Below, in pieces: positions 2,930 to 61,866 of a stretch of DNA of 64,000 bases. The DNA lies in the NCBI GenBank assembly GCA_964408995.1, contig CAYPBP010000002.1:32491-96490 (forward strand). The letters are read 5' to 3'. Source of the stretch: an uncultured Gammaproteobacteria bacterium. GTDB lineage: Bacteria > Patescibacteriota > Microgenomatia > UBA12405. Numbering within the stretch: position 1 is the stretch's first letter; every line of letters starts with the position of its first letter. The notes under the pieces were generated by a model, which saw only the letters and a program-made list of their open reading frames with translations, searched no databases and was not told where the DNA came from. A program made the position numbers and the translations under genes.

Positions 2930-3640
2930 TTTATACCTCAATTACCAACGGTAAAACCATTGGTTGGCGGCCAGTTTAAATTTTTGATATTGCAGATATG
3001 TAATAAAAATTGCAATAATAGTATGTGCTTTATATTCAAAACCCTAAAAATTTTGCAGATAAATTTAAAACAAAATCATCTAGATTGAATAACTGGGATT
3101 ATTCTAAGCCAGGTTTTTATTTCATTACGATAAAAACATTAAACGATAATAATTTTTTTGGAAAAATTATTAATGAAAAAATTGAATTATCGGCTATTGG
3201 TAAAATTGCCAATCAATATTTAATTGATATTTCTAAACATTTTTCAAATGTAATATTGGATGAATATACTATTATGCCAAATCATTTGCATATTCTATTC
3301 CTTGTAGAGACGCCAGATCTGGCGTCTCTACAAAATAATCAAAAAATCACGTTGCTAAATTATAGCCACAATAACCATCCAGATTTTTATAATCGATTGA
3401 ATCAAAAATCAAAACAATTAATTCCAAAAATTATTCAACAATATAAATCATCAGTAAAACGAATTTGTAATCAGAACAATTTATTTTTTGGTTGGCAAAA
3501 TCGTTACTATGATCAGATTATTAAATCTAAACTAGAATTAAATAATATACGTCAATATATTAAAAATAATCCTGTTAATTGGAAAAAATAATTTATACCT
3601 CAATTACCAACGGTAAAACCATTGGTTGACGGCCGGTTTT
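2928..3640 (+). mobile_element. IS200/IS605-like (RAYT-type) Y1-transposase element bracketed by a 50-bp direct duplication
   Basis: Direct repeats at 2928-2977 and 3590-3640 (taatttatacctcaattaccaacggtaaaaccattggttgRcggccRgttt, 2 mismatches). Each contains the imperfect palindrome ccaacggt/accattgg and flanks a HUH-Y transposase gene. Confidence 0.65.
3025..3591 (+). CDS. IS200-like / REP-associated tyrosine transposase (COG1943-type Y1 HUH transposase)
   Basis: GTG start. N-terminal W-x6-G-YF-T-T box (NNWDYSKPGFYFITIKT), HUH motif IMPNHLHILFLV, and C-terminal catalytic-Tyr box WQNRYYDQIIKSK...YIKNNPVNW matching the RAYT/TnpA_REP signature. Confidence 0.8.
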   Translation: MLYIQNPKNFADKFKTKSSRLNNWDYSKPGFYFITIKTLNDNNFFGKIINEKIELSAIGKIANQYLIDISKHFSNVILDEYTIMPNHLHILFLVETPDLASLQNNQKITLLNYSHNNHPDFYNRLNQKSKQLIPKIIQQYKSSVKRICNQNNLFFGWQNRYYDQIIKSKLELNNIRQYIKNNPVNWKK

Positions 3641-7702: not shown

Positions 7703-7723
7703 TAAAATTTTAAAATTTTATTT

Positions 7724-11280: not shown

Positions 11281-11346
11281 CCGCATTAACGGGACTAAAA
11301 CCCACTCCTCTCAGATTTCATCTGAGGGACCTCCCTTGACAAGGAG
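11281..11346. repeat. Structured GC-rich multi-hairpin element (repeat family D, copy 1); could serve as a 3'UTR or terminator
   Basis: Three consecutive hairpins: cccgcattaacggg, cctctcagatttcatctgaggg and cctcccttgacaaggagg. On the minus strand the last is followed by a U-run. A related copy lies at 57500-57548. Confidence 0.45.
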
Positions 11347-11359
11347 GCTTTAAATATTT

Positions 11360-13934: not shown

Positions 13935-13939
13935 ATTTT

Positions 13940-13972
13940 CAATCTCCCCTAGCCCCTCTTTCACAAGAGGGG
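13940..13972. repeat. Family A GC-rich palindromic element, copy A1, in the nusA-infB intercistronic region
   Basis: caatctcccctagcccctctttcacaagagggg. The same ~35-nt motif occurs at 49741, 57555 and 61263. Confidence 0.7.
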
Positions 13973-13982
13973 AAAATTTAAT

Positions 13983-15954: not shown

Positions 15955-15982
15955 ATTCACCCCCGCTGTTGCGGGGGTGAAT
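15955..15982 (-). terminator. Hairpin between dnaK and dnaJ (attenuator or terminator)
   Basis: tcacccccgctgttgcgggggtga, a perfect 10-bp stem, followed on the minus strand by a T-rich run. Confidence 0.55.
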
Positions 15983-32053: not shown

Positions 32054-32129
32054 AATATAAGTTTATCAAAAAACCCTTTGGTACTTCGTACCACCTTTCC
32101 ATTGACAGGGCACTTTTATTAATAGATAA

Positions 32130-34001
32130 TTATTCCCATTCGGTGGTGCCGGGTGGTTTGGAAGTTAAATCGTAGGCTATTCTGGAAATATTAGGAGTAT
32201 TTTTTAGTATCTCATTAACTAACTCCTCTAAAACTTCTTCTGGAATATCTTTGCCAGGTAGAGCTGGAACACCAGTCATAAAATCGTTAGTAATAAATGT
32301 TCTAATGGCAATCGAACGATTACCATTAACACTAAAAGCAATTGGGAAAGAGACAATGGGAACTTGAGATAAAGTTCTGACTAAAGAATGTTTAAATAAA
32401 ATTTTATTGGCAATATCATCGGCTGTTTGAAGTTGTTTAATAGTTTCTACATCAAGGTATGTTTGAGTAATTTCTTTTATTGGGCCATCAACTTTAGGAC
32501 CAAAAATATAAGCAACTCGATTAATTTGATGAATTTTTTTGGGGATTTCTTGAGCCAAAGCAAATAATTTACCCCAATCTTTTTTACCACTGATAGCAGC
32601 TAGATAGCTATAAGTTCGACCATCTCCTTGAACACCAACTGTTTGAATTGGAAGAAGGGTGACAGATAAATCAGTGGAACAATATTGTTTTAAGGATTCA
32701 TTGATAGCATCAAAATCATCAGTTATAAAAGGTTTATCGGCACAAATTATTCTGACAGCTAAGCCAGGACCGGGAAATGGTTGTCGCCAAACAAGTTCAA
32801 TGGGGATACCTAAGCTGGCACCCAAGGCTCTAACTTCATCTTTATGATAATCTTTTAATGGTTCAATTACTCTGCCCTCGTCTCTTAATTTTCTGACTTC
32901 TGGAGTGTCATTATGGTGAGTCTTAATAGTGGCAGCATTACCGCTGACAACATGAGAAGCACTTTCAATTAAGTCAGGTCTCAAAGTCCCCTGGGCCAAA
33001 ATAACATCTTTGGGATCTAGTTTTAAATCTTGGATAGCTTTTTTTGAAACTCTCATAAAAGTATCGCCAATAATGGCTCTTTTTTCTTCTGAGTTAGTGA
33101 TTTTTTTAAGAGGTCCGACTATTCTTCCTTTAAATTCAGAGGTGCCATTATAGAAATCATTTGAGGCATCAACGACAACTATATTAACTCCAATATCTTT
33201 TAAGATTTTTTTGACATTAACACTTTCATCTTTTCTCATGAAACCATTATCGATATGGAGAGCATAAATATTTTTTGGATCAATTGCTTTGGCTAATAGA
33301 ACTGCACAAACAGTTGAGTCAACTCCACCACTAACTAACATTAAAACTTTTTTATTACCAACTGCATTTTGAATATAATCAATGGCCTGTTTTTGACGAT
33401 CCTCAACCGTGTAATCACCACTAAAACCAGCAATGGAATACAAGAAATTTTTGATAATTTTTTTACCATTTAAACTTAAATCGACTTCTGGATGAAATTG
33501 AACACCATAGAGTTTTTTGGAAGGATTTTCAATGGCAGCAATAATATTATTGTTAGAAAAAGCAATGGCTTTGAAACCTGGGGCTAAAGTATCTGGGGTG
33601 ACACTGTCACCATGGCTCATAAGAACTTGTTCTTTTTTGTCTAATCCAGAAAATAAAGAAGAATCTGGATTAACATCAATAGTGCAAGGACCATCTTCTC
33701 TGGTGGTACCTTTAATGACTTTGCCACCACTTGAGTAATTCATTAATTGCATGCCATAACAAACTCCTAAAACTGGAATATCAAGAGAAAAAATATTTGG
33801 ATCATATTTAGGAGCATTATCATCATCAACACTGTTGGAACTACCAGAAATAATAATGGCTTTATAGTTTTTTAAAACAGATGAAGGAGTATCTAGGGGT
33901 AAAATTATTGATTCTACTCCAAACTCACGAGATCGACGGTCGATTACTTTACCATATTGAGCACCAGCATCAAGAATAGCTAATTTTTCATTATTTGACA
34001 T
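32130..34001 (-). CDS. guaA: GMP synthase (glutamine-hydrolysing)
   Basis: GATase-1 GVCYGMQLM, PP-loop SGGVDSTVCA and the C-terminal ...YDLTSKPPGTTEWE. 623 aa, about 100 aa longer than usual. Confidence 0.9.
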   Translation of the reverse strand: MSNNEKLAILDAGAQYGKVIDRRSREFGVESIILPLDTPSSVLKNYKAIIISGSSNSVDDDNAPKYDPNIFSLDIPVLGVCYGMQLMNYSSGGKVIKGTTREDGPCTIDVNPDSSLFSGLDKKEQVLMSHGDSVTPDTLAPGFKAIAFSNNNIIAAIENPSKKLYGVQFHPEVDLSLNGKKIIKNFLYSIAGFSGDYTVEDRQKQAIDYIQNAVGNKKVLMLVSGGVDSTVCAVLLAKAIDPKNIYALHIDNGFMRKDESVNVKKILKDIGVNIVVVDASNDFYNGTSEFKGRIVGPLKKITNSEEKRAIIGDTFMRVSKKAIQDLKLDPKDVILAQGTLRPDLIESASHVVSGNAATIKTHHNDTPEVRKLRDEGRVIEPLKDYHKDEVRALGASLGIPIELVWRQPFPGPGLAVRIICADKPFITDDFDAINESLKQYCSTDLSVTLLPIQTVGVQGDGRTYSYLAAISGKKDWGKLFALAQEIPKKIHQINRVAYIFGPKVDGPIKEITQTYLDVETIKQLQTADDIANKILFKHSLVRTLSQVPIVSFPIAFSVNGNRSIAIRTFITNDFMTGVPALPGKDIPEEVLEELVNEILKNTPNISRIAYDLTSKPPGTTEWE

Positions 34002-34044: not shown

Positions 34045-35982
34045 TTAATAAATATCTGGGTCGTAGATGATGTCATCATCATTTCTTGATTTTGGGTGAC
34101 GATAATCACGAATAATTTCGATACTTTCTTCAAACTCAACTAAATCACCTGGGATATCTGCTAAAAAGCGACTTGGTTCGTTTAAACTGCTTTTGCCAAA
34201 AAACAAACGACGAGAGGCATAAGAAATATAAAGATAATCCTTGGCCCTGGTAATGCCCACATAACAAAGACGACGCTCTTCTTCTATTTGAGCTTCATCA
34301 ATTAAACATCTTGAATGAGGCAAAATTCCTTCTTCAAATCCAACCATAAAAACGACTTCAAACTCTAGACCTTTGGCGCTGTGAAGAGTCATTAATTTAA
34401 CTCCATCTCTGTTTTCTTTTTTCTTATTTTTTTCTTGAAGAGAATATTCTTGCTGGACTAAAGTTATGTTTTCTAAAAAGGCAGTTAAACTTGGATAAGC
34501 AGTGGCGACAGATTTTAATTCTTTAATATTTTCAATTCTCTTTTGATCTTCTTCATCTTTGGTATCGAATTTATCAAGATAACCAGAATTGACAACTAAA
34601 GATTCTAGAATTTGAAGAGAAGTTAAATTTTTTAAATCAATATTTTTTATATGTTCTAAAAGAAGAGATTTTTTACGTTTACCTAAAGCTTTTTGGATCC
34701 TTTCTTCGGAGATATGATCGGATGGATTACTGGTAAAACGAAGCATGGATAAAATATCTTTGACTTCGGCTCGCTCGTAGAAACGAATGCCACCTAATAA
34801 AACATAAGGGATATTAAGTCGTAAAAAAGCTTCTTCCAAAACACGAGACTGAGCATTCATTCGATAAAGAACAGCCATATTCCTTAATGGAATTTTCATA
34901 TTATCATTGATGAATTTTATTTTTTGAGCAATAAAATCAGATTCAGCAACTTCGGATTCGGCTTCAAAAATTTTGATTTTATCTTGGGAAAACTTTTTGG
35001 TAAATAATTTTAAAATTGGATGAGAATTATTTTTGGAAATAACTGAATTGGCAGCATCGAGAATAATCTGAGTCGAACGATAATTTTCTTCGAGATTAAT
35101 AACTTTAGTATTTTTAAAATCAGCAGTAAAACTAATAAGATTACGATAATCGGCTCCACGCCAACCATAGATGGCTTGAGAAGCATCGCCGACAACTGTA
35201 ATTTGTTTATATTTTTGAGCTAAAAGCTTGGTTAAAAGATATTGGATTTGATTGGTGTCTTGATACTCATCAACCATAATGAATTTATAGATTTCTTGAT
35301 ACTTAGCTAAAACCTGTGGATGTTCTAAAAATAATTCAACTGTTTTAAATAAAAGATCATTAAAATCGAGAGCATGAAATTCAAATAATTTTTTTTGATA
35401 AAGAGAGTAAATTTTACTGGCATAATCTTGCCAAAAACCATGGCTTTGAGCAATCATATCTTTTGGAGTTTGAAAAGAATTTTTAGCGGCTTCGATGTAA
35501 TAGAGAACACTTGATGGTTTAAATTCTTTGGTAGTTAGTCCTAATTCGTGAAGAATATTTTTAATTAAATTTTCTTGATCATTAGAATCGTAAATAACAA
35601 AAGTTGGAGGAATGCCAATATTGTTACCATCAATTCTTAAAACTCGACAACAAAAAGAATGAAAAGTTCCCGCCGACAGCTTCGCAGTCTTGGCGGGCAG
35701 GCCCGCTTCGTATCCAGATTTGGCGGGCAAACCGACTTTATTTTTTTCTTTTGAAATTAATTGTTCCATTCTCTTTTTCATTTCATCAGCGGCTTTGTTG
35801 GTGAAAGTTAAAAGTAAAACTTCTGATGGTTTAGCAATTTTTTGTTGGATGAAATAAGCCACCCGATGAGTTAGAACACGAGTTTTACCTGAGCCAGCAC
35901 CAGCCAATAGAAGCAAGGGTGAACCAATATGAGTCACCGCTTCTTTTTGAGGTGGATTTAAACCGTCTAGAATATTAACCAT
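34045..35982 (-). CDS. uvrD: UvrD/PcrA-family DNA helicase
   Basis: LNPPQKEAVTHIGSPLLLLAGAGSGKTRVLTHRVAYF, TFTNKAADEM and the downstream SF1 motifs. Contains a GC-rich in-frame insert at 35668-35736. Confidence 0.88.
   Translation of the reverse strand: MVNILDGLNPPQKEAVTHIGSPLLLLAGAGSGKTRVLTHRVAYFIQQKIAKPSEVLLLTFTNKAADEMKKRMEQLISKEKNKVGLPAKSGYEAGLPAKTAKLSAGTFHSFCCRVLRIDGNNIGIPPTFVIYDSNDQENLIKNILHELGLTTKEFKPSSVLYYIEAAKNSFQTPKDMIAQSHGFWQDYASKIYSLYQKKLFEFHALDFNDLLFKTVELFLEHPQVLAKYQEIYKFIMVDEYQDTNQIQYLLTKLLAQKYKQITVVGDASQAIYGWRGADYRNLISFTADFKNTKVINLEENYRSTQIILDAANSVISKNNSHPILKLFTKKFSQDKIKIFEAESEVAESDFIAQKIKFINDNMKIPLRNMAVLYRMNAQSRVLEEAFLRLNIPYVLLGGIRFYERAEVKDILSMLRFTSNPSDHISEERIQKALGKRKKSLLLEHIKNIDLKNLTSLQILESLVVNSGYLDKFDTKDEEDQKRIENIKELKSVATAYPSLTAFLENITLVQQEYSLQEKNKKKENRDGVKLMTLHSAKGLEFEVVFMVGFEEGILPHSRCLIDEAQIEEERRLCYVGITRAKDYLYISYASRRLFFGKSSLNEPSRFLADIPGDLVEFEESIEIIRDYRHPKSRNDDDIIYDPDIY
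35668..35736. repeat. GC-rich palindromic/tandem element (family C) in-frame within uvrD
   Basis: ttcccgccgacagcttcgcagtcttggcgggcaggcccgcttcgtatccagatttggcgggcaaaccgac, which encodes VGLPAKSGYEAGLPAKTAKLSAG between helicase motifs Ia and Ib. GC far above the local background. Confidence 0.6.
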
Positions 35983-38696: not shown

Positions 38697-40496
38697 TTAT
38701 TTAAACTTTTTGAAAATAATTACTTTGGGATGATCGTAGACTGAAAAAGCCTCTTCAGCAATATCATCACGAAGATAAACTCCAGGATAAAGACAAGTAT
38801 TATCAACTTCAAACCATTTATTTTTAGTTTGAGAATAGGGAAAGTTGGTTGGCCCAATATAAATACAATTTTTTAAAAATGGAAGGGATAGGCCAGGATA
38901 AGAGTTAAATTCAATTTCTTTTTTGAAATCTGATTTGCCGTCAAAAAGATCTTGATAATATTTGGTAGCAATTGGATATCTGTTTGGAACAAGAGGAATA
39001 GAAGACCAGAGACGATTGGAAGTAAGAAAAATATAATCAGTCTTTTTTAAGGTTGAATTTATTTTTTGCCATTTTTCAGAAGTATCCGGATCATAAAGAT
39101 GAAGATTTTGGTTTTGGTAAGGATTAAAAGATAGAGGTAAAGCATCATCCCAATATTCATTGGCGATAGTTGAGGATGATGGAATATTTTTATAAATCCA
39201 ATTTGAGGCTTGAACGCGAGAGTGAGGTCGAGTGTAGATTGATATAAAGATAATGGCATAAGAAAAATGAAAGAACAAAATAAGATAAAGTATTTTTTTT
39301 GATAAATTATTTTGAAAGATTAAAGTGACAATTATGGTTATAAATGGATATATGACCAAGAAATATCTCATAGTAGCAGTGAACTGATTGCCTTGTTGTA
39401 TGAAAAGAAAAATAGTCCAAAAAATACAAAGGAAAATTGTAAAATTTTTAGAATTTAAAAATATTTTCTTAAAAACCCTCTTGTTGTCCCGCAGATGCGG
39501 GACAACTTTCTCCCTTAAAAAAGGAGACGTTATTTTTTGATATATATATTTTATAAAAAACAAAAGAAAAACAAAAGATAAAGGTAAACCTAGTCCCCAT
39601 AAAACAATATTTTTTAGCGGATATAAAATTGGAGTTTTACTGAGCCATTGAATTTCTGGGGGATAAAAAACATCTTTATTAATTAAAATTGATTTTAAAT
39701 ATACAAGACTTTTTATAAAGTCTGGATTAATCTTAATTAAAGAAATGAAACTATATGGCTGAAAAATACGAAAAACAATAAAAGAAATAAAAAGAGATAT
39801 AAATATTTTTAAAAAGATAAGAGTCTTCTTTTTAAAAATTTGATAAATAAAAAACAATAAAATAACAGGAGAAAAAAGAAATGCAGAAATTTTACAAGTT
39901 AAACTTAGACCAAAGGTAATAGAAGCAAAAATTAAAAAAATATTCTTATTAGTTTTTAGCCAATAAGAAAAACAAACAAATGATAGTAATATAAAAAAAG
40001 TAAGAAAAGTATCAACGGCAAAAAAATGTGAAAGTTGAATTGGCAAAACAGTAAAAGCATAAAGTAAACTTGGTAAAAATAAGAAAAACTTTTTGTTTTT
40101 GGAAATGAATAATTTTGCTAGAAAATATAAACTGAAAATATTGAGGGAATCAAAAACAGATGATAAAGCGCGACCTAATAAATGAATTTTGTCATAGCCT
40201 TCTATATTAAAAATATTACCCAATGTTTTAACTAAAAATAATGGGAAGGTGCCATAAACAAAAAAATTAAATTGTTGATAATTAAACGGATTTAAGGGTG
40301 AAGATTTGGTATCAAAATATTGAACAATGGAACTGGGAAATTCAATCGTAGAAATTATCATGGTTAAAAATCTTTCGTCTGGATGAAGATGCTGATTTTG
40401 ATCCCAATTTAGTCCAAAGAGACGAATTGATAGAGCTAAACAAAAGATAATAAAAACTATAAAAAGATGATGATTAAATATTTTTTTGACAAACAT
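38697..40496 (-). CDS. Polytopic GT-C-fold membrane glycosyltransferase-like protein (paralog 2, 599 aa)
   Basis: N-terminal loop GLNWDQNQHLHPDERFL (a DE motif after TM1), many TM helices, and a C-terminal domain homologous to that of paralog 3. Contains the in-frame GC-rich hairpin at 39483-39506. Confidence 0.55.
   Translation of the reverse strand: MFVKKIFNHHLFIVFIIFCLALSIRLFGLNWDQNQHLHPDERFLTMIISTIEFPSSIVQYFDTKSSPLNPFNYQQFNFFVYGTFPLFLVKTLGNIFNIEGYDKIHLLGRALSSVFDSLNIFSLYFLAKLFISKNKKFFLFLPSLLYAFTVLPIQLSHFFAVDTFLTFFILLSFVCFSYWLKTNKNIFLIFASITFGLSLTCKISAFLFSPVILLFFIYQIFKKKTLIFLKIFISLFISFIVFRIFQPYSFISLIKINPDFIKSLVYLKSILINKDVFYPPEIQWLSKTPILYPLKNIVLWGLGLPLSFVFLLFFIKYIYQKITSPFLREKVVPHLRDNKRVFKKIFLNSKNFTIFLCIFWTIFLFIQQGNQFTATMRYFLVIYPFITIIVTLIFQNNLSKKILYLILFFHFSYAIIFISIYTRPHSRVQASNWIYKNIPSSSTIANEYWDDALPLSFNPYQNQNLHLYDPDTSEKWQKINSTLKKTDYIFLTSNRLWSSIPLVPNRYPIATKYYQDLFDGKSDFKKEIEFNSYPGLSLPFLKNCIYIGPTNFPYSQTKNKWFEVDNTCLYPGVYLRDDIAEEAFSVYDHPKVIIFKKFK
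39483..39529. repeat. GC-rich palindrome (family B, copy 1) in-frame within the GT-C gene
   Basis: gttgtcccgcagatgcgggacaac, a 10-bp stem, then tttctcccttaaaaaaggagacg. Encodes ...REKVVPHLRDNK... Related to gtcccgcagcggcgggac at 51477-51494. Confidence 0.6.
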
Positions 40497-41103
40497 AAAA
40501 TACGTGAGGGTAAAAAAGACTAAAATATTTACCTTGTTTAATTATTTTAAAATTATTTTTTATTAATAGACTTTCTAATTGTAAATCAGATAGAAAATAA
40601 AGTGAAGAAAATTTGGTCATAATTAAATCGTGAATATAATTCCAATAGTATTTTAAAAGTGGTTTTGTGTTTATATCTTTGATAATTAAAAGTCCGTTTT
40701 TATTAAGCTTAAAAAAAGAATCTTTTAAAAAGATATTTTTTTGAGATGAATTAATGTGATGAAGTAAATCAATGGCAACAATAGCATCAAATTTTGATTG
40801 ATTATTGTCAATTAGATTTGAAGTTTCAAAAGAAATATTAGTTATGTTAGAAGAAACTTTTTTGGCCAAGGCAACCCTTACGGGGTTTAACTCTAGACCA
40901 ATAACTTTTCTTTTTTTGTTTTTGGCAAAAAATATTGAAGTAAATCCATATCCACAACCAACATCTAGAATATAACCTTTTTGAGGTAAAAGTTTATCTA
41001 TTTTTAAAACAGGCAAAATAATAAATCTAAGAAAAACATAAATTCTTGGCCAAAGAAATGGATATAAATTAATTATTGGAAAATATTTTTTGATAGTCAT
41101 CAT
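40474..41103 (-). CDS. Class I SAM-dependent methyltransferase
   Basis: Motif I ILDVGCGYGFTS. Confidence 0.75.
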   Translation of the reverse strand: MMTIKKYFPIINLYPFLWPRIYVFLRFIILPVLKIDKLLPQKGYILDVGCGYGFTSIFFAKNKKRKVIGLELNPVRVALAKKVSSNITNISFETSNLIDNNQSKFDAIVAIDLLHHINSSQKNIFLKDSFFKLNKNGLLIIKDINTKPLLKYYWNYIHDLIMTKFSSLYFLSDLQLESLLIKNNFKIIKQGKYFSLFYPHVFYVCQKNI

Positions 41104-42649
41104 AAGTGAGATTATTAATTTTTTTGTAAATTCTTATGGTCGGATTATCAAAAACAGACCAAGTTTCTTCAGCGTTTTCAGAGTTTAAAATAAAATCTTT
41201 TTGGTTATTAAATTTTTTAATTTCTTGAAATCCTAATTTACCTGAAAATAAATTTTGATAATATTTAAAAGATAAAGGATAGTTTTTGTTATTTTGATTT
41301 TTAAAAACTCGGCGAGAAGGAATAATGATGTAATCACTTTTAAATAAATCCATTAATAAATCATTTTGGTTTTGGTTATTGTAAAAATCAAAATGATTAA
41401 CATTAATTTTTGAATTGGAAATGGGAATATTAACTACATTGCCAGATTCTGAAAAAACATAAGAATTTAAAGGAATATTGGAATTAATCCAACTTGAAGC
41501 AACTACCCTGTTGTCTGGCTTAAAATATTTTGAAACAAAATAAATACCAGGACTAATCATTAGCATAACTAAAACAAAAGTTAGATAATTATTTTTAATT
41601 TTTTTTATAAAATAGAGACAAAAAAATGAACCAATAAAAAATAATGGTGACATAAAACGAGACCATTTAATAAAGAGTTGGCCACTGTAAAGAAAATAAA
41701 TTACTGAAGGAAATAAAATTATTAATAATTTATTTTTATTAGTTGATATTAATTTTTTAGTATTTAGTATGAAAATAATAAATCCAATAAAAGAAAACAA
41801 ATAAATGAATATGCCATTGGCATATGGAAAAATATTTTTAAACTGGAAAATATAAGGAATAGTATTTTCAAACTGACGAGTGTAAAAAACTTTTGACTGA
41901 CCAGTGGCAATTGAAGTTTCATAAATCATAGTTGATTTAAAGTTAGAAAAATCAATAAGATTAAATGGTGAAAAGAGAATTGATAATAATAAAAATAGAA
42001 ATGTAAAAATTATTGAACTTAAAATGAAATTAAGAAATTTTTTATTTTTTAATAAAACTAAAAATAAAGATAAATAGATTGGTAAGACAAAAAAGACAGC
42101 TGTTATTTTTGAAGCAAGACCGAGTGCACTAATTAAAATAGAAAAAAATAAATATATTTTTTTTTGATTTTTAAGATAATTTAGAGATAAATAAATGTTG
42201 ACTGAAAATACAAAAATCAAAATCGATTCGGTGGTACCAAAGTGAGCAGACTGAATAAGCCCTGGAGTAAAAATAAGGAGTAAGGCAAATAAATAAGCAA
42301 TTTTTTTTAAAGAAAAAATATTTTTAGCAATTAAATAAAAAAATAAAATTGATAGAGATGAAAAAAGAGCTGACCAAAAACGCATGGTCAAAACTATACT
42401 AGAAAAATCATGTTTAAAAGTGGTAAAAAAAGTTAAAAAAAGTGGAAACTGACCATAGGCAAAGAAATTGGGATGGAGATTTTCAAAACTCATCTGAGCC
42501 ACTGAGGTGGCCATATTATTTTCATCAGGATTAAAGAAAAAATCATTGCCCCAATTTAGAAAACAAAAACGAGTAAATATCGTAAGTATTAATAGAAAAA
42601 TTGGAATTAATAGTTTTTTATCTTTATTAAATTGCATAGACAATACCAA
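41069..42649 (-). CDS. Polytopic GT-C-fold membrane glycosyltransferase-like protein (paralog 3, 526 aa)
   Basis: GNDFFFNPDENN loop after TM1, many TM helices, and a C-terminal ...KYYQNLFSGKLGF...EETWSVFDNPTIRIYKK similar to paralog 2. Confidence 0.55.
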   Translation of the reverse strand: MVLSMQFNKDKKLLIPIFLLILTIFTRFCFLNWGNDFFFNPDENNMATSVAQMSFENLHPNFFAYGQFPLFLTFFTTFKHDFSSIVLTMRFWSALFSSLSILFFYLIAKNIFSLKKIAYLFALLLIFTPGLIQSAHFGTTESILIFVFSVNIYLSLNYLKNQKKIYLFFSILISALGLASKITAVFFVLPIYLSLFLVLLKNKKFLNFILSSIIFTFLFLLLSILFSPFNLIDFSNFKSTMIYETSIATGQSKVFYTRQFENTIPYIFQFKNIFPYANGIFIYLFSFIGFIIFILNTKKLISTNKNKLLIILFPSVIYFLYSGQLFIKWSRFMSPLFFIGSFFCLYFIKKIKNNYLTFVLVMLMISPGIYFVSKYFKPDNRVVASSWINSNIPLNSYVFSESGNVVNIPISNSKINVNHFDFYNNQNQNDLLMDLFKSDYIIIPSRRVFKNQNNKNYPLSFKYYQNLFSGKLGFQEIKKFNNQKDFILNSENAEETWSVFDNPTIRIYKKINNLTYDDYQKIFSNN

Positions 42650-44916: not shown

Positions 44917-45369
44917 TTAAGGGTTTAAACCATATGATGTTTCATCATAATTTAATTCATCTGATGTTTCATCATAATTTAATTCATCTGATGTTTCATC
45001 ATAATTTAATTCATCTGATGTTTCATCATAATTTAATTCAATTAGTTCAACTGGGGTTGGTTCTGGAGTTGGTGTGGGTGTAGGAGTTGGTGTGGGTGTA
45101 GGAGTTGGATTGAAAACTGAAAAACTAAAATTTTCTTCTATATTTTTATTTCTTGATTCAATTTCGGACATTACAGATAAATCTAGATTCGGATTTATTT
45201 CTTTTAATAAAGAATTGTTTTCAACTTCTTTTTGAGGTTTTAGTAAGTTAAAATAACTTTTTTGGATTAAAAAAATAAAAACCGTCATCAAAGTAAGAAA
45301 AGAAATCAAAACAAAGTATAAAGAGAGTTTATTCTTTTTCATTATTGTCTGATAAAAAATATAAATCAT
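44917..45369 (-). CDS. Membrane-anchored repeat protein ((PT)n linker plus 4 repeats of ELNYDETSD)
   Basis: N-terminal TM, PTPTPTPTPTPTPEP, then four tandem nonapeptide repeats. Confidence 0.45.
   Translation of the reverse strand: MIYIFYQTIMKKNKLSLYFVLISFLTLMTVFIFLIQKSYFNLLKPQKEVENNSLLKEINPNLDLSVMSEIESRNKNIEENFSFSVFNPTPTPTPTPTPTPTPEPTPVELIELNYDETSDELNYDETSDELNYDETSDELNYDETSYGLNP
44932..45039. repeat. Tandem 27-bp coding repeat, 4 copies
   Basis: (c)atctgatgtttcatcataatttaattc, 4 copies, encoding ELNYDETSD on the minus strand. An adjacent 18-bp-period (PT) repeat lies at 45056-45112. Confidence 0.85.
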
Positions 45370-48645: not shown

Positions 48646-50079
48646 ATGAACTCAAAAAAATTTTTTATAACTACCCCAATTTATTACATTAACGATATTC
48701 CTCATATAGGACATACCTGTAGTACTGTGGCGGCGGATATTGTGGCCCGATTTCACAGAGCAAAAAATGAAGAAGTATTTTTTCTAACTGGCACTGATGA
48801 ACATGGACAAAAAGTAGCTGAACCAGCAATCAAAGCAAATCTAAATCCAAAAGAATATTGTGACAGTATTGCTCCCCGATTTGAAGAAGCTTGGAAGGCT
48901 TTAAATATTAGTCATGATTTTTTTATTAGAACAACCGATTCTAGACATGAAAAAATAGTCAATGAATTTTTACAAAAAATTTATGACAAGGGTGATGTTT
49001 ATAAAGCAAAATATGAAGGCTGGTATTGTGTCGGCTGTGAAAAGTTTTTAACTGAAGTGGAATTAGTTGACAAACATTGTTCTCTTCATCCACCAGAGAA
49101 AACTGTTTTTAAAAGTGAAGAAAATTGGTTTTTTAAATTAAGCAAATATATTCCTCAAATTATTAAATTAATTGAGGATGATAAAACTAATTATATTTTC
49201 CCTGAAGGAAAAAGATTAGAAATATTATCAAAACTTAAAAAAGAAGAAATTAGAGATATTTCAATTTCCAGAGAAAACGTGGAATGGGGCATTCCTACAC
49301 CTTGGGATTCTAAACAAACTGTCTATGTGTGGTTTGACGCTTTAATTAATTATTACAGTGCAACTCAATTTGTTGAAGGTAAAAAAGATTTTTGGCCAGC
49401 AAGTGTTCACTTATTAGCTAAAGATATTTTGTGGTTTCATACAGTTATTTGGCAAGCCATGCTTTTATCAGCTGACTTACCATTACCTATAAAAACTTTT
49501 ACTCATAGTTTTTATTTAATTGATGGTAATAAAATGTCAAAATCTTTGGGAAATGTAATTAGCCCAGGTCAATTAGTAGAAACTTTTGGAGTTGATGGAT
49601 CTAGGTATTTAATTGCCAGATCTTTTCCTGGAGAAAATGATAGTGATGTAGGAATTGAAAGATTTAAGGAAAAATATAATGCTGATTTAGCAAATAATTT
49701 AGGGAATTTAATTTCTAGAGTAGCAAAGTTAGCTGAAGGCCAATCTCAATCTTCCCCCGACCCCTTCTTTGACAAGACGGGGAGTTTTAATGAAGAATTT
49801 GAAAACTTAATTGAGAAATTTGATTTTAATCAGGCGATTGCTTTAGTTTTTGATAAATGGATTGATAGTTCAAATTTAAAATTGAATCAAACTACACCAT
49901 GGAAATTAGAAAAAGATAATACTGATAGAATTACAGTCTTAAATGAATGTATCAAAAACATTTTGAAAGCTGCTTTCCATTTGCAAATTTTTATGCCAGA
50001 AGTGGCCCAAAAAATTGAAAATTGTTTCAAAGATGAAGTTAAACCACTTGAGGAATCTTTATTTCCAAGAATAAAATAA
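48646..50079 (+). CDS. metG: Methionyl-tRNA synthetase (short form, no C-terminal tRNA-binding appendix)
   Basis: HIGH (PHIGHTCS) and KMSKS (KMSKSLGN). Contains the in-frame family A element at 49741-49783. Confidence 0.95.
   Translation: MNSKKFFITTPIYYINDIPHIGHTCSTVAADIVARFHRAKNEEVFFLTGTDEHGQKVAEPAIKANLNPKEYCDSIAPRFEEAWKALNISHDFFIRTTDSRHEKIVNEFLQKIYDKGDVYKAKYEGWYCVGCEKFLTEVELVDKHCSLHPPEKTVFKSEENWFFKLSKYIPQIIKLIEDDKTNYIFPEGKRLEILSKLKKEEIRDISISRENVEWGIPTPWDSKQTVYVWFDALINYYSATQFVEGKKDFWPASVHLLAKDILWFHTVIWQAMLLSADLPLPIKTFTHSFYLIDGNKMSKSLGNVISPGQLVETFGVDGSRYLIARSFPGENDSDVGIERFKEKYNADLANNLGNLISRVAKLAEGQSQSSPDPFFDKTGSFNEEFENLIEKFDFNQAIALVFDKWIDSSNLKLNQTTPWKLEKDNTDRITVLNECIKNILKAAFHLQIFMPEVAQKIENCFKDEVKPLEESLFPRIK
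49741..49783. repeat. Family A GC-rich palindromic element, copy A4, in-frame in metG
   Basis: caatctcaatcttcccccgaccccttctttgacaagacgggga, which encodes QSQSSPDPFFDKTG in the anticodon-binding domain. Confidence 0.65.
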
Positions 50080-51237: not shown

Positions 51238-51429
51238 TTATTTTTCTGGTTTAATTACTAAATTTTTTGGAGCAGGTAATGATTCATCAACAACTAAATC
51301 TTGTGGAACCCAAGCTGAATCGTTAAGATCTTCTGGTTTTAAATCTTGTGGAACCCAAGCTCCATCACTTAATTCTTCTGCTAGAATTCCTTGGTCTGGA
51401 ATGGATTTAAAAAATCTTTTTTCAACCAT
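51238..51429 (-). CDS. Hypothetical small acidic protein with an internal AWVPQDL duplication
   Basis: The 63-aa ORF has a 19-bp DNA repeat, atcttgtggaacccaagct, occurring twice. Confidence 0.3.
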   Translation of the reverse strand: MVEKRFFKSIPDQGILAEELSDGAWVPQDLKPEDLNDSAWVPQDLVVDESLPAPKNLVIKPEK

Positions 51430-51472
51430 AAGTTATTATAACAAATCCACCCCTACCCCTCCTTTGATCCTC

Positions 51473-51509
51473 CTTCGTCCCGCAGCGGCGGGACTACGGA
51501 CGGACGAAG
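51473..51509. repeat. GC-rich palindromic element (family B, copy 2) downstream of folD
   Basis: cttcgtcccgcagcggcgggactacggacggacgaag. Alternative nested stems, preceded by a C-rich tract. Confidence 0.55.
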
Positions 51510-51525
51510 CAATAGGGGGTAATTT

Positions 51526-52371
51526 TTATTCTTTATTTTGTTTTTTAAAAATTTCAACAGTATTAAATAAAAGTGAAGCAATAGTCATGGGACCAACACC
51601 ACCTGGAACTGGGGTTATAAAACTGGCAATTTGGGAAACTTCATCAAAATCAACATCACCAATTAATTTACCAGTTTTTGGATCTGGACTTAGACCAATA
51701 TCAACAACAATGGCACCATCTTTGACAAAATCTTTGGTAATTAATTTTGATTTTCCAACTGAAGTGACTAAAATATCAGCTTTTTTACAAATATCTTGAA
51801 GATTTTGAGTGTGACTATGACAAATAGTTACAGTACTATTTTTACCTAATAATAAGGCAGAAAGTGGTAATCCAATAAAATGACTTCGACCAACTATTAC
51901 CGCGTTTTTTCCGCTAAAATCAACATTATATTCTTCTAATAATTTAATGACACCAAAGGGAGTAGCAGAAGCAATAGCTTGGGGTTTTTTTTGAAAAAGT
52001 AGACCTAAATTAAGAGCCGTTAAACCATCGGCATCTTTTTTGGGATCGATATTATCTAAAACTTCTGCGGTATCAATCTGTGGTGGAAATGGTAATTGAG
52101 TCATAAAAGCAGTAACCTTATCATCATTGTTTAGTTTTTTAACTAGAGCAATAACCTCGGCAGTAGTTGAAGATTGAGGTAAATGATGAATTTCACCATC
52201 AATACCAATTTCAGCAGCTTTTTTTTGTTTCATCTGATCGTATTGAAGACTGGCTGGATCATCCCCGACTAAAATTATATCTAGTTTAGCTTTTTTTGAA
52301 TATTTTTCTAATTCAATTTTTAAATTATTGGAAATTTTTTGAGCTGTGGCTTTGCCATCTAGGATTGTCAT
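51526..52371 (-). CDS. folD: Bifunctional methylenetetrahydrofolate dehydrogenase/cyclohydrolase
   Basis: MTILDGKATAQKI..., GRSHFIGLPLSALLL, PGGVGPMT. Confidence 0.9.
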   Translation of the reverse strand: MTILDGKATAQKISNNLKIELEKYSKKAKLDIILVGDDPASLQYDQMKQKKAAEIGIDGEIHHLPQSSTTAEVIALVKKLNNDDKVTAFMTQLPFPPQIDTAEVLDNIDPKKDADGLTALNLGLLFQKKPQAIASATPFGVIKLLEEYNVDFSGKNAVIVGRSHFIGLPLSALLLGKNSTVTICHSHTQNLQDICKKADILVTSVGKSKLITKDFVKDGAIVVDIGLSPDPKTGKLIGDVDFDEVSQIASFITPVPGGVGPMTIASLLFNTVEIFKKQNKE

Positions 52372-52423: not shown

Positions 52424-52455
52424 TTTATTTAATTATATACGCCCCTCGGTGCGGG
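52424..52455 (-). terminator. Intrinsic terminator downstream of map (repeat family E, copy 2)
   Basis: tatatacgcccctcggtgcggggcgtatata, the same 12-bp stem as at 6033-6065. Confidence 0.6.
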
Positions 52456-52467
52456 GCGTATATATGT

Positions 52468-53901: not shown

Positions 53902-54654
53902 ATGGAAAACACTTCATGGCAAAAAGTAAGTAAATGGTACAACAAAACGGTTGGTACGGACGGTCATTATTACCATCAAGCCATAATATTACCAAACTTA
54001 AAAAGACTTTTGAAACTTGATAAAAATAGCTCTCTTCTTGATTTAGCTTGTGGACAGGGAATATTAGAAAGATATCTAGATAAAGAAATTGATTATATTG
54101 GAATTGATTTGGCTAGTAATTTGATTGCTGAGGCTAATAAGAAAAAAATAAATATTAATCATAAGTTTTTAGTGGCTGATGTGAGTAAAGAATTACCAAT
54201 TAATAAAAATGATTTTGATGCTGGTGCAATAATTTTGGCCTTACAAAATATAAAAAAACCATTTGGAGTGATTAGAAACTTTTCTAAACATTTAAAAAAA
54301 GATGGTCAATTGATAATTGTTTTAAACCATCCAATTTTTAGAATCCCCCGTCATAGCAGTTGGGGTGAGGATATGACTAACAATAAAATTCAATATCGAA
54401 GGGTTGATGATTATATGACACCTTTGGAAATTCCAATTGTGACAAATCCTGGGAAAAAAGAAAGTGAAAATACTTGGTCTTATCACTATCCCCTGTCAGC
54501 TTATAGTGAAATGCTTTTTGATAATGGATTTTTTATTGAGAAAATTGAAGAGTGGGTCTCTGATAAAAAAAGTACTGGGTCTAATGCTAGGGTGGAAGAC
54601 AGGGCTAGAAAAGAGTTCCCTTTGTTTATGGCAATTGTGGCTAGAAAAAATTAA
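53902..54654 (+). CDS. Class I SAM-dependent methyltransferase
   Basis: Motif I LLDLACGQG. Rossmann layout. Confidence 0.75.
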   Translation: MENTSWQKVSKWYNKTVGTDGHYYHQAIILPNLKRLLKLDKNSSLLDLACGQGILERYLDKEIDYIGIDLASNLIAEANKKKININHKFLVADVSKELPINKNDFDAGAIILALQNIKKPFGVIRNFSKHLKKDGQLIIVLNHPIFRIPRHSSWGEDMTNNKIQYRRVDDYMTPLEIPIVTNPGKKESENTWSYHYPLSAYSEMLFDNGFFIEKIEEWVSDKKSTGSNARVEDRARKEFPLFMAIVARKN

Positions 54655-55699: not shown

Positions 55700-57426
55700 A
55701 GTGTTAAACCCTCTGCCCTTCGGGCATCTCCCTTAACAGGGCGACTTTTTAATAATTTAATAATTTCTTCTGGAAAGAATGGACGACCATTGTTTTTGTT
55801 AATAATTTTGCTTGGACTAAATTCAAATTGAGACTTTAAAAGAGTGACTAATTGATTAGTTTCATTATTTTCGATGACAATAATTTTTTCAAAAGCATCA
55901 ATTATTTTTTTAATATCTGGATTGATTGGCCAAAGAGTTTTTATTTGTAAGAAAGCGAAGTCTTCTTTATTTTTTATTAATTTCAAAGCTTCTAAAATGG
56001 CACCTTTTGGAGAACCCCAACTAATAATTAATTTAGTGGCTTTTGAAGATCCAAATAAATTTGGCTTTGGACAAATTTTTAAAGCAGTTTTTAATTTTAA
56101 TAATCTTTTTTGAGACATTTTTTCGGAAAGAGAGGCATCTTCCGTTGAAAAACCAACTTCATCATGTTCGTAACTATTGGCTAAAAATTCACCATTTGGA
56201 GTACCTGGAAGAGTAAGAGGAGAAATACCGTCTTTGGTAAAGGCATATCGTTTGAAACTGTTTTCTTCAACTTCATTTAAGATTTTACCTTTGTCTATTT
56301 TTACTTCCATACTTGGAAAATATTTGGTACTAGCACTTGATTCGGCAACTAGTTTGTCACTTAAAACAATGACTGGTGTTTGAAGAATAGCCGCTAAATC
56401 TAAAGATTTGTGACCTAATTCAAAAGATTCATTAATATCACCTGGGGCGACAACAACTTTTGGGAATTCACCATGACCAGAATAAATGGCATGAAATAAA
56501 TCTCCTTGACTAGTCCAAGTGGGTAAGCCAGTGGCTGGACCTGGACGAGATACTAAATAATAGACCATACCGATTTCAGAAATGCCACAAAAACTAACAG
56601 CTTCGTTCATAAGGGCAAATCCACCACCTGAAGTGCCCGTAGCAGCTCTAGCACCAGCAAAAGCGGCACCAGCAGCCATGTTGGCAGAAGCAATCTCGTC
56701 TTCTGGATGATTTACGTTTAATTTAAATTCTGTTTGTTTACTAGCTAGGAAATGAAGAGCACCAGTGGCTGGAGTCATAGGATAGGCTGAATAAAAATTG
56801 CCACCACCTTTGATAAATCCCCAACCATAAGCTTCGTTACCATCATAAAAACCTTTTTTGGTTTTTTTAGTTGGTTTTTTTATTTTGATTTGATATTTAG
56901 AAAAATTTTCTTTGGCATAATTATAAGCAAGAGTAAAAGCAGCTAAATTTACATCAGCATGTTTTCCATAAGATTGAGAGATGTGATTTTTAGCTAAATC
57001 AATATCTAAATCATAAAGATAAGCAGCAACACCTAGACAAAGAGTATTCATAACCAAGGGATTGCCGGCTTGAGTAGCCATATCTTTTAGAGGTAGATTT
57101 AAGAAATTAGCTTTGCTTTTAACTTCGGTAAAGTCTTCATCAGAAAAAACTAAAGTCTTTTTAGTAAATTCGTCTTGATGTTGTTGCCAATGGTTTGGAT
57201 AAACTGAAAAGAATAAATCAACATTAAAGTGAGTTGAAAAAACTTCTTGATCAGAGAAAGTAATTTGATAGGTATTATGACCACCTCTAACCAAAGATGG
57301 ATATTCACTGTAATCAGATAGATGGAAACCATGATCAATTAAGAGTTTTGAAAAAATTTGACCAGCAGACTTGATTCCGGAACCAGCCGGACCAGAGATT
57401 TTGATGGTGGAAAAATTTAAGCTCAT
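55696..57426 (-). CDS. 2-oxoacid:ferredoxin oxidoreductase, fused gamma-alpha subunit
   Basis: N-terminal gamma-domain (GPAGSGIKSAGQIF) followed by the alpha-subunit core (YPMTPATG). A 4-bp overlap with the beta gene. Confidence 0.85.
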   Translation of the reverse strand: MSLNFSTIKISGPAGSGIKSAGQIFSKLLIDHGFHLSDYSEYPSLVRGGHNTYQITFSDQEVFSTHFNVDLFFSVYPNHWQQHQDEFTKKTLVFSDEDFTEVKSKANFLNLPLKDMATQAGNPLVMNTLCLGVAAYLYDLDIDLAKNHISQSYGKHADVNLAAFTLAYNYAKENFSKYQIKIKKPTKKTKKGFYDGNEAYGWGFIKGGGNFYSAYPMTPATGALHFLASKQTEFKLNVNHPEDEIASANMAAGAAFAGARAATGTSGGGFALMNEAVSFCGISEIGMVYYLVSRPGPATGLPTWTSQGDLFHAIYSGHGEFPKVVVAPGDINESFELGHKSLDLAAILQTPVIVLSDKLVAESSASTKYFPSMEVKIDKGKILNEVEENSFKRYAFTKDGISPLTLPGTPNGEFLANSYEHDEVGFSTEDASLSEKMSQKRLLKLKTALKICPKPNLFGSSKATKLIISWGSPKGAILEALKLIKNKEDFAFLQIKTLWPINPDIKKIIDAFEKIIVIENNETNQLVTLLKSQFEFSPSKIINKNNGRPFFPEEIIKLLKSRPVKGDARRAEGLTL

Positions 57427-57499
57427 CTGACTATTTTACTACATATTTGTTGAATTTTATAAAAAATGATTAAAACTCCCTTTGCCCTTAATAAAAACC

Positions 57500-57548
57500 C
57501 ACCTTCCCTGAAGGGCCCCTTCCTCCCTTGAAAAGGGAGGTCTATAAA
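57500..57548. repeat. Family D multi-hairpin element (copy 2) in the korA / DEAD-helicase divergent intergenic region
   Basis: aaaacccaccttccctgaagggccccttcctcccttgaaaagggagg, similar to 11300-11346. Confidence 0.5.
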
Positions 57549-57554
57549 GTTTTT

Positions 57555-57589
57555 CAATCTCCCCCTGCCCCCTCTTTCACAAGAGGGGG
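57555..57589. repeat. Family A element, copy A2 (intergenic, directly after the family D copy)
   Basis: caatctccccctgccccctctttcacaagaggggg. Confidence 0.7.
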
Positions 57590-57714
57590 TGAAAATAAAT
57601 TTTATATTTGCAATTGATGGTGATTATGATAGACTACAAGCTGATTTAGGCAAATTGGTGCATTTATACTTTGTGGGCACCGCAAGTTTTTAGGTTACGG
57701 CCGAAAAACAGTGT

Positions 57715-60599: not shown

Positions 60600-61802
60600 T
60601 CATTTTTTCTTCTCTTTTAAATATTTTTTATCTTTTAGTTTTTCAGGCAAAAGGCTTTCTTTTGTGTACATTTCATAGTCTTTGCCATAATCTAATTCTT
60701 TCATTAACTTAGTTTCGGCGTTGCGGAGATTAAGCGGTATTGGTAGATTACCAAACTGCTGAACATCGGCAAGAGCGGCTAAATAAGCATCATAAGCAGA
60801 ACGATCTTTAGGACTTTTGGCTAGATAAACAACTCCATGAGCTAGGTTTTCTCGACACTCTGGATAGCCAATTGTTTCAACAGCTCTGAAAACTTCATTG
60901 GCCATCATTAAAGCTGAAGAATTGGCAATACCAATATCTTCACTGGCAAAAATAACCATACGACGGGCAATAAATTTTGGGTCTTCGCCAGCATCAATCA
61001 TTCTGGCTAAATAATAAAGAGCAGCATCTGGATTACTGGCTCGCATAGATTTTATAAAAGCAGAAATGGTATTGAAGTGATCCTCCCCTTTTTTATCGAA
61101 ACGTAAAAAACTATTTTGAAGAGTTGATTTTAAGTTTTCTTTAGAAAGATCGTTATATAAAGTGAAAGCATTATCAATCATGGTTAGAGCCTGACGAGCA
61201 TCACCATTGGCCATTTGAATTAGCCATTCTTTGGCATCTTTTTTGATAGTTAATTTTTTATTCAATCTCCCTAAATCCCTCTTTGACAAGAGGGACTTAT
61301 TAATGACATCAATTGCTCTAGTGATTATTTTGTCAATATCTTCATCTGACAATTCTTTGAGGGTGAAAACTCGACAACGAGATAAGAGTGGAGAAATAAC
61401 TTCAAAACTGGGATTTTCGGTGGTGGCACCGATTAAAGTTAGAAGACCGGATTCTACATAGGGTAGCAAAAAATCTTGTTGAGCTTTATTAAAACGATGA
61501 ATTTCGTCTAAAAAAAGAATTACTCTTTGAATAGGTCTGGCTTGAGCAATAATTTTTTTAATATCGTCTTTGCTAGCAGAAACAGCTGATAATTCAAAAA
61601 TCTGGGCATCTGTTTCTTTGGCAATAATTTTGGCTAAAGTGGTTTTACCAACCCCTGGAGGACCCCAAAAAATCATAGAAAAGAATTGTTTGGATTCGAT
61701 TAATTTCCTTAAAGGTTTTCCCTCCCCAACTAAATGAGATTGACCAATAAATTCATCAAGGTTTTTAGGACGTAGAAGAGAGGCTAGCGGTTGAGTAAGC
61801 AT
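60600..61802 (-). CDS. rarA: Replication-associated recombination protein A (MgsA/RarA AAA+ ATPase)
   Basis: LRPKNLDEFIGQ, Walker A GPPGVGKTT, and the MgsA C-terminal helical domain. I place the start at MLTQPL. Contains the in-frame family A element. Confidence 0.9.
   Translation of the reverse strand: MLTQPLASLLRPKNLDEFIGQSHLVGEGKPLRKLIESKQFFSMIFWGPPGVGKTTLAKIIAKETDAQIFELSAVSASKDDIKKIIAQARPIQRVILFLDEIHRFNKAQQDFLLPYVESGLLTLIGATTENPSFEVISPLLSRCRVFTLKELSDEDIDKIITRAIDVINKSLLSKRDLGRLNKKLTIKKDAKEWLIQMANGDARQALTMIDNAFTLYNDLSKENLKSTLQNSFLRFDKKGEDHFNTISAFIKSMRASNPDAALYYLARMIDAGEDPKFIARRMVIFASEDIGIANSSALMMANEVFRAVETIGYPECRENLAHGVVYLAKSPKDRSAYDAYLAALADVQQFGNLPIPLNLRNAETKLMKELDYGKDYEMYTKESLLPEKLKDKKYLKEKKK
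61263..61295. repeat. Family A element, copy A3, in-frame in rarA
   Basis: caatctccctaaatccctctttgacaagaggga, which encodes (reverse strand) ...KSLLSKRDLGRL... in the linker between the AAA+ and C-terminal domains. Confidence 0.65.
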
Positions 61803-61866
61803 GTTTTGGGTTTTATTTGGGTAATAACCCATTTTAACATACTAAAAATAATTTTTAGTTATTATC

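Follow-up and report, generated by a model that had tools for sequence, protein, structure and literature searches.

An in-frame hairpin in a GT39 glycosyltransferase gene of a Shapirobacteria-like genome, probably part of a bipartite mobile repeat

The Rickettsia palindromic elements (RPEs), a subject of work by Ogata and colleagues in 2000, are reportedly inserted in-frame in protein genes. The GC clusters and byp elements of yeast mitochondria are GC-rich palindromic mini-insertions in AT-rich genomes and also occur in coding sequence; byp elements are bypassed by the ribosome, and the reading frame need not be kept. Some GTAG/CGTC repetitive extragenic palindromes (REPs) and some RPEs lie inside open reading frames (ORFs) (PMC3733652). 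We analyzed a hairpin inside a membrane glycosyltransferase gene of the GT39/PMT_2 family (GT-C fold), located in a 64,000-nt stretch of contig CAYPBP010000002.1 that we call the window. The window is AT-rich (~31% GC), and its best protein matches came from Candidatus Shapirobacteria, a group of the candidate phyla radiation (CPR, or Patescibacteria). A first-pass annotation, made from the letters of the window alone, had assigned the hairpin to a palindrome "family B", distinct from a "family A". We consider it likely that the hairpin is instead the second hairpin (H2) of a 57-nt non-autonomous mobile element, inserted in frame in a loop-coding part of the GT39 gene and belonging to a family of bipartite repeats of Shapirobacteria and Microgenomates.

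Cell-envelope genes surround the hairpin in a long cluster on the minus strand (murJ, pilN/O-like genes, UbiA, two GT39/PMT_2 genes, a methyltransferase, PAP2 and DUF2298). PMT_2/PMT domains (GT39, GT-C fold) were detected in the product of the host ORF, and full-length orthologues of this protein are present in Candidatus Shapirobacteria. The host gene and the parts of the element are as follows.

38697..40496, minus strand: host gene, a single intact ORF of 599 aa encoding a GT39/PMT_2 (GT-C fold) membrane glycosyltransferase
39477..39533, minus strand: in-frame insertion of 57 nt (19 codons) encoding ITSPFLREKVVPHLRDNKR; the covariance-model match to it covers 39469-39530
39509..39527, minus strand: first hairpin (H1), TCTCCTTTTTTAAGGGAGA, a degenerate version of the family's conserved hairpin
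39483..39506, no strand assigned: H2 hairpin (the "family B" palindrome), GTTGTCCCGC-AGAT-GCGGGACAAC, a perfectly paired 10-bp stem closing a 4-nt loop
39473..39482, minus strand: G-rich tail AAGAGGGTTT at the 3' end of the element, with the same tail in related loci L001 and L002 and in the window copy 55706-55743

The sense strand of the insert folds as the tandem hairpins H1 and H2 followed by AAGAGGGTTT, and H2 is translated as VVPHLRDN within ...EKVVPHLRDNKR... of the GT39 ORF. The end coordinate given earlier for the palindrome, 39529, takes in the second, weaker hairpin (39509-27) that had been left undescribed. The perfect 10-bp GC-rich hairpin was where it had been reported, in frame in the GT-C gene, and far above chance. 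There were five perfect GC-rich hairpins of at least 10 bp, compared with none in 30 dinucleotide shuffles, and the motif GTCCCGCNNNNGCGGGAC, with up to two mismatches, matched three times in the window and not at all in 100 shuffles. Folding energies, which the first-pass annotation had proposed as a check, were well below those of shuffled sequence for the GT39 insert (dG -27.8 kcal/mol, z -5.7) and for a second GC-rich block, located after folD (dG -42.7, z -4.5). Because the motif, hairpin-count and folding shuffles all fall far short of the observed values, chance is excluded as a source of these hairpins. The insert also stands apart in base composition, with 47% GC compared to 26% GC for the host gene.

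The 57-nt segment is a lineage-specific insertion. We aligned 39 GT39 orthologues and determined the length of the segment by comparison at the DNA level. The insert peptide was also present in P0001 (98% identity) and P0002 (83%), P0003 (79%) had a different peptide encoded by a GC-rich 54-nt insert at the same site, and the segment was absent from the other 36 orthologues, all at 69% identity or less. That is, the site is filled in four sequences, the window included, and empty in 36. The segment was also missing from the paralogue at 41069..42649, as had been predicted, and the suggestion that the hairpin is part of a short palindromic element inserted in-frame was borne out. Sharing of the peptide by related proteins had been named as evidence against insertion, and here the outcome was mixed: the peptide is shared at 83% identity and above, is different at 79% and is lacking at 69% and below. 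Orthologues with an empty site have neither H1, H2 nor the tail, which points to arrival of the three as one unit or at a single site. Among the filled loci, the H2 stem of L002 has a compensatory G-C to C-G flip, and L001 carries a decayed version with another H2 and the same architecture. In an AlphaFold2 model of the GT39 protein (mean predicted local distance difference test score, pLDDT, 84), the insertion was the least confident internal segment, forming a loop between helices 304-323 and 349-369 with pLDDT below 50 at residues 330-335.

Elements with this layout form a family. The H1 consensus is CCTCCTTGTCAAGGGAGG, in its fuller form (C)CCTCC(T/C)TGTCAAGGGAGG(G). H1 is followed either by a T, a variable GC-rich hairpin H2 and the tail GG(A/T)GGGTTT (GGWGGGTTT; G-rich tail sequence GGGAGGGGTTAGGGGTGGG), or, in copies that have no H2, by TTA and GGGGTGGGTT. 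As judged from its sequence, the tail may have G-quadruplex potential. Scanning JGI metagenome contigs with the H1 consensus, we found at least 120 loci, with 130 matches listed; about 75 of those listed were in AT-rich contigs, nearly all with the same downstream architecture. The density of the family reaches approximately one copy per 7 kb. The 6.7-kb metagenome contig L189 was left out of the copy counts; its pair of elements flanking 5.8 kb lies in a contig that is an inverted duplication over its whole length, probably an amplification or assembly artefact. Three-way comparisons of orthologues over ~40 kb revealed further GC-rich in-frame inserts. H1 is kept by sequence, in contrast to H2, which covaries: five of eight H2 pairs change on both sides, and there were 23 double-change cells compared with 7.2 in shuffles, with none of 500 shuffles reaching the observed value. 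We found no description of the H1-H2 family in the literature, searched by topic and by sequence words, or in Rfam. There was no Rfam match at gathering thresholds across the whole window, and searches in E-value mode at three copies gave chance-level matches only. No tRNA or tmRNA was found in the window.

To locate copies in the window we used a covariance model built from 24 family copies, all from outside the window. The top 11 matches were all on the minus strand. At least nine family copies are present in the window, all on that strand.

11293..11350, minus strand: canonical copy (H1, H2 and tail), 43.8 bits, E 3e-13; intergenic, and trailed by a hairpin that resembles a terminator and has a T8 run
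55700..55747, minus strand: copy at the end of the POR alpha gene, supplying its C-terminal 16 codons, 39.8 bits, E 8e-12
57489..57543, minus strand: copy with H2, 5' of a POR gene, 22.8 bits, E 7e-6
61258..61297, minus strand: copy without H2, sense, in the MgsA-like AAA+ gene 60600..61832, 18.9 bits, E 1.6e-4
49742..49783, minus strand: copy without H2, antisense, in metG (48646..50079, plus strand), 16.7 bits, E 9e-4
57550..57590, minus strand: copy without H2, adjoining 57489-57543, 5' of a POR gene, 13.6 bits, E 0.012
13935..13974, minus strand: copy without H2, intergenic, 12.5 bits, E 0.028
39469..39530, minus strand: the GT39 insert, matching over the full model length, 10.9 bits, E ~0.1, the 8th-best match in the window
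32066..32112, minus strand: decayed copy in the guaA-femAB spacer, CCCTGTCAATGG..TGGTACGAAGTACCA..AAGGGTTTTTT, 10.8 bits, E 0.11

A further minus-strand match at 54318-54367 (E 0.18) looked spurious on inspection. Two of the copies in genes could be compared with related loci L087 and L088. Relative to both, the metG copy is a 6-aa insert, SSPDPF, that is also found in L038. The POR-end copy at 55700-55747 is likewise an insertion, replacing an overlapping gene junction in those two loci; its GAGGG tail lies 9 nt 5' of the ATG of the next gene and may now supply that gene's ribosome-binding site. Next to the decayed copy, guaA itself (32130-34001) lies between uvrD and femAB and is absent from that position in L001 and L003.

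By score alone, the GT39 insert is a weak member of the family. Its assignment, made from sequence comparison, is supported by its architecture, its strand, the copy at the orthologous site of L001 (E 0.007 against the same model) and sub-motifs. One of these, TTAAGGGAGA...AGAGGGTTT, is common to the GT39 insert, where TTAAGGGAGA belongs to H1, and to the window copy 55706-55743. Hairpins of the B type (CCCGC-NNCT-GCGGG) serve as H2 in canonical copies of the unrelated contigs L193, L246 and L197. Because the B-type hairpin recurs in this role, we regard "family B" as one variant of the hypervariable H2 of a larger bipartite element, and not as the separate lineage originally proposed. Scans of viral contigs with two patterns gave chance matches only, and the 16-base B core, being widespread in GC-rich DNA, is not diagnostic by itself. 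This core was absent from all 80 listed GT39-profile loci (relatives at 57% identity or less).

The second site of the B hairpin is downstream of folD (51526..52371, minus strand).

51442..51520, minus strand: GC-rich intergenic block after folD, holding the B-type hairpin 51477-51494

A related copy within a larger GC-rich structure had been reported here, and it was found as described, in a block (~51442-51520) larger than the one first outlined. The hairpin, GTCCCGC-AGCG-GCGGGAC, has the same 7-bp stem as the GT39 hairpin and lies within the 96-nt spacer after folD. It has GTAG directly 5' of the stem and is nested between CCCCCTATTG (51510-51519) and TCAAAGGAGGGG-TA-GGGGTGGATTTG (51442-51467), the latter, on inspection, almost the same as the right half seen in copies that lack H2, for example L196. 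The covariance model matched the block at 51438-51495 on the minus strand (7.6 bits, E 1.4). The placement of the B hairpin differs between the two sites: it follows H1 in the GT39 gene and lies 5' of the right arm of H1 after folD. The block is lineage-specific. L087 and L088 are without the ~75-nt GC-rich segment, and in L088 folD and the gene that follows it are 21 nt apart, with a conserved ATTGTTATAAT box present. Filled and empty forms were therefore found both at the GT39 site and in the folD spacer. The block does not have a proper U-tract. On its 3' side is a 63-aa ORF (51238-51429) with an internal repeat (AWVPQDL twice), directly preceded by a conserved TGTTATAAT box; this ORF has no counterpart in L088, and L087 has different small ORFs there.

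Several comparisons indicated that the elements move. The POR-end element CGCCCTGTTAAGGGAGATGCCCGAAGGGCAGAGGG recurs near-unchanged in a different gene, a PMT paralogue, in L003. At one site in a DUF2298 gene, L003, L038 and L042 each carry a canonical element with a different H2, and the site is empty in the window and in L001. Orthologous sites also showed flips from G-C to C-G in H2. Roughly one copy in two is intragenic (34 of 66 lie inside ORFs of at least 120 codons). ORFs of 150 codons or more hold 29 copies, 17 of them sense and 12 antisense, and five of the six frames are used; the sixth contains TGA. As five frames and both orientations are read, the unit is defined at the level of nucleic acid and not of protein. 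Every intragenic copy examined is in frame and stop-free, which argues for translation of these copies; the intragenic survivors are those that keep the frame open.

The orientation of the elements is strongly polar. In 28 multi-copy contigs, 75 of 80 copies are on the majority strand, and only ~5 close inverted pairs were found among the copies. With the elements masked, 36 of 39 contigs have the element's G-rich strand on the strand whose GC skew is negative. Genes split 20 to 17 in orientation, and element orientation follows GC skew and not gene direction. In the window the masked GC skew of the minus strand is -0.047, and all nine counted copies, the GT39 copy among them, conform.

A possible source of mobility is encoded elsewhere in the window by a gene resembling those for REP-associated tyrosine transposases (RAYTs).

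3025..3591, plus strand: RAYT-like gene for a Y1 (HUH) transposase, PF01797 at 24.1 bits (cut-off 23)

Its product contains the HUH motif NHLHIL and RYYDQII, matches NF047646 REP_Tyr_transpos with E 3e-11 (below that model's cut-off) and has 72 homologues, several of them named RayT by JGI. The gene is single-copy and syntenic in relatives, and it lies in the same genome as the family, as in a REP/REPIN-RAYT system. From this co-occurrence, the RAYT-like protein can be put forward as a candidate mobilising enzyme of the H1-H2 family. A palindrome, GTAGAGACGCC..GGCGTCTCTAC, flanks or sits inside the RAYT gene; in the window it is a perfect 14-bp palindrome, TTGTAGAGACGCCAGATCTGGCGTCTCTACAA, at 3302-3333, just 3' of the HUH motif. 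It is kept across homologues, read as VETPDLASL or, in another frame, as CRDVACNVST, and is sometimes duplicated with N/Q-rich spacers. The same palindrome flanks the RAYT gene in L258 (4582-4609), as GTAGAGACG palindromes, and occurs in-frame in murB of L245 (1107-1134). The RAYT-gene palindrome is likely to be the enzyme's cognate GTAG-type REP. A ~50-nt direct repeat, AATTTATACCTCAATTACCAACGGTAAAACCATTGGTTGRCGGCC, brackets the gene (2929-2978 and 3591-3640) and occurs nowhere else in the window; in L255 it is found only downstream of the RAYT gene. The only trace of the H1-H2 family near the gene is a decayed H1-like sequence at 2901-2925. When all loci were searched with tblastn for a RAYT beside family copies, only two other loci had a RAYT gene, neither adjacent to a copy.

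The H1-H2 elements resemble each of three described kinds of bacterial repeat or transposon and differ from all of them. Like RPEs, they are short hairpin repeats found in spacers and in-frame in many functional genes (PMC3733652). They resemble RPEs further in that the peptide is added at tolerated surface or loop positions and that neither has a demonstrated transposase. As compared by description, RPEs are ~100-150 bp long and confined to Rickettsia, whereas H1-H2 elements measure 35-60 nt, come from CPR bacteria, have a bipartite build in which the second hairpin is hypervariable, and show strong polarity with respect to GC skew. With REPs and REPINs they have in common that they are many-copy, 20-40-nt GC-rich imperfect palindromes without target duplication in a genome that has a single-copy, syntenic RAYT gene. 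In contrast to REPs, canonical H1 and H2 carry no GTAG/CGTC tag (the GT39 hairpin has GTTG, and only the folD copy has GTAG), copies are intragenic about half of the time where REPs are mostly extragenic, they are mostly single and co-oriented and not inverted doublets, and they do not flank the RAYT gene. The likeness to the single-strand transposons of the IS200/IS605 family and their miniature derivatives (PMC6006769) consists of definition by hairpins, no target duplication, replication-strand orientation and the HUH Y1 enzyme class. Here the differences are that we found no autonomous parent, conserved target tetranucleotide or left/right end pair, and that H1-H2 elements are far shorter. 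Unlike the byp elements of yeast mitochondria, intragenic H1-H2 copies are in frame and stop-free, and the host lineage and sequences are unrelated. The family is distinguished by its CPR host, 35-60 nt size, bipartite layout, hypervariable H2, very high intragenic fraction and strict replication-strand polarity. Classification as a miniature inverted-repeat transposable element was rejected because the ends (CCTCC... and ...GGGTTT) are not inverted repeats and there is no target-site duplication.

From these properties we can outline how the GT39 insert may have arisen. The element would have been inserted, in frame and stop-free, in an ancestor that the window organism shares with relatives as distant as ~79% protein identity. 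By analogy with REPs and IS200/IS605-type elements, it would have spread by way of single-stranded DNA at replication forks; the skew-tied orientation, the dependence on hairpins and the lack of duplication suggest single-strand, replication-coupled transposition of the HUH/Y1 type. An HUH tyrosine transposase may be the mobiliser, with the RAYT homologue at 3025-3591 as the candidate. The 19 extra residues of the GT39 protein would be a passenger that the protein tolerates, placed in a disordered loop that links two transmembrane helices, and the perfect palindrome would be kept through arm-to-arm templating at the DNA level, and not through selection on protein or mRNA. A broader version of this scheme, which we offer tentatively and think more apt to be wrong than right, is that the elements represent an undescribed class of replication-polar bipartite elements whose movement, as single-stranded DNA, is driven by a RAYT-like enzyme inherited vertically, and which settle in genes as freely as in spacers.

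Several observations weigh against the mobile-element reading as a whole. The insert alone matches the covariance model weakly and its H1 is degenerate, and the folD copy is weak, rearranged in layout and assigned partly by eye. No target-site duplication or conserved target motif was present in the flanks examined, and no transposition intermediate was found. The palindrome of the RAYT gene differs from the H1-H2 elements. The three H2 sequences at the single DUF2298 site can also be read as selected structure. Copy counts for the window organism are limited to the 64-kb window, and GC skew on short contigs is only a proxy for replication direction.

One alternative is that the hairpins are selected functional mRNA structures, such as processing or stabilising elements, pause or coupling signals, or attenuators using the Shine-Dalgarno-like AAGGGAGG and anti-Shine-Dalgarno-like CCTCC arms. 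On this view the copy inside the gene would serve to regulate the long operon of cell-envelope genes. This idea is in keeping with the strong and significant folds, the covariation of H2, the compensatory change between the window and L002, the tail of copy 55700-55747, whose spacing from the start codon that follows is that of a Shine-Dalgarno sequence, and the fact that the window copies and the GT39-syntenic copies are all co-oriented with the operon. However, a sense-only bias in the first 12 copies, which had hinted at a role in RNA, was gone in the larger sample with its 12 antisense and 17 sense copies in long ORFs; orientation tracks GC skew and not genes; and presence and absence are patchy among close relatives. 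The flips in H2 are from G-C to C-G and do not follow the usual G-U paths of RNA helices, and there is no match to an Rfam family. An intrinsic terminator was rejected: a consensus scan was negative, 10 nt (AACAAGAGGG) separate the stem from TTTTT on the sense strand, and the position is mid-gene. On balance we think a selected mRNA structure unlikely, though single copies, such as the one at 55700-55747, may have a role of this kind.

We give slightly less credence still to the view that "family B" is an independent REP-type palindrome (a GTAG/GTTG tag plus a GC-rich stem), mobilised by the RAYT, that landed twice beside or inside older H1-type elements. The two B hairpins in the window agree at 16 of 18 core positions, are directly preceded by GTAG (folD) and GTTG (GT39), and are placed differently relative to H1. 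The palindrome associated with the RAYT is built in the same way (GTAG, stem, a loop containing CAGAT, and CTAC), and GTAG- and CGTC-tagged REP superfamilies are known (PMC3733652). Yet neither the window nor related loci totalling 1.4 Mb yielded further B copies, the B hairpin type occurs in other contigs only as the H2 of canonical elements, without a GTAG tag, the core by itself turns up often by chance in GC-rich DNA, and the H1, H2 and tail of the GT39 site are jointly absent from the empty orthologues. Finally, the loops between transmembrane helices differ in length among GT39 orthologues, and there are other indels in the same protein, as would be expected if the segment were an ordinary lineage-specific loop expansion that is palindromic by accident, with the folD hairpin an unrelated terminator. 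This seems very improbable, given that shuffled sequences contain no GC-rich perfect hairpins, that the insert stands out in GC content from its gene, that its architecture and strand are common to at least eight other copies, that related elements occur in unrelated genes, and that relatives do not have the folD block, which is itself without a proper U-tract. The bipartite mobile element remains the reading we favor.

The window carries other repeats as well, and the suggestion that this genome hosts several kinds of short palindrome was correct: besides the GTAG palindrome in the RAYT gene, there are family A and an element shared by uvrD and tatD genes. Family A consists of intergenic hairpins at 6033-6065 and 52434-52464 with a common 12-bp stem, TATATACGCCCC..GGGGCGTATATA, unrelated in sequence to H1-H2. 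The uvrD/tatD element is GC-rich and palindromic: an identical 27-nt stretch, CCGCCGACAGCTTCGCAGTCTTGGCGG, is in-frame in the uvrD-like gene of the window (34045..35982; element at 35665-35729) and in tatD of L088 (11565-11591), in opposite orientations relative to the genes. Compared with L001 and L003, the element gives UvrD 12 extra residues. GC-rich intergenic hairpins at 7682-7703 and 15955-15982 (9- and 12-bp stems) match none of the other families. A 150-aa protein encoded at 44917-45369 ends in C-terminal tandem NYDETSDEL repeats that are absent from its orthologues. Contigs L039 (many sites) and L068, and L076/L078, have abundant palindromic repeats of their own (GTCATCGCGAG...CTCGCAATGAC, CCGCCAGCTGGCGG core; and CGTCACGCGTTACGCGTCACG, respectively). 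Because other contigs carry their own abundant palindromes, hairpin repeat families appear to be common in Microgenomates.

CPR genomes are tiny and gene-dense and are usually called poor in mobile DNA. If the bipartite repeats are what we think they are, selfish hairpin DNA shapes protein sequences in these bacteria, in parallel to RPEs in Rickettsia, and the inserts give rise to lineage-specific GC-rich "loops" that could cause errors when CPR proteins are aligned, annotated for domains or predicted in structure. The link between orientation and GC skew is a testable handle on the mechanism of transposition, through the single-stranded DNA of the replication fork, and might be used to read the direction of replication from CPR assemblies that are fragmented. 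It is also possible that hosts have co-opted the polarity and the G-tracts (GGGAGGGG-TTA-GGGGTGGG), for example as strand-orienting signals or as hairpin/G-quadruplex switches. Were the more tentative scheme of a RAYT-driven class moving as single-stranded DNA to hold, a measurable share of CPR proteins would carry loop peptides encoded by such elements.

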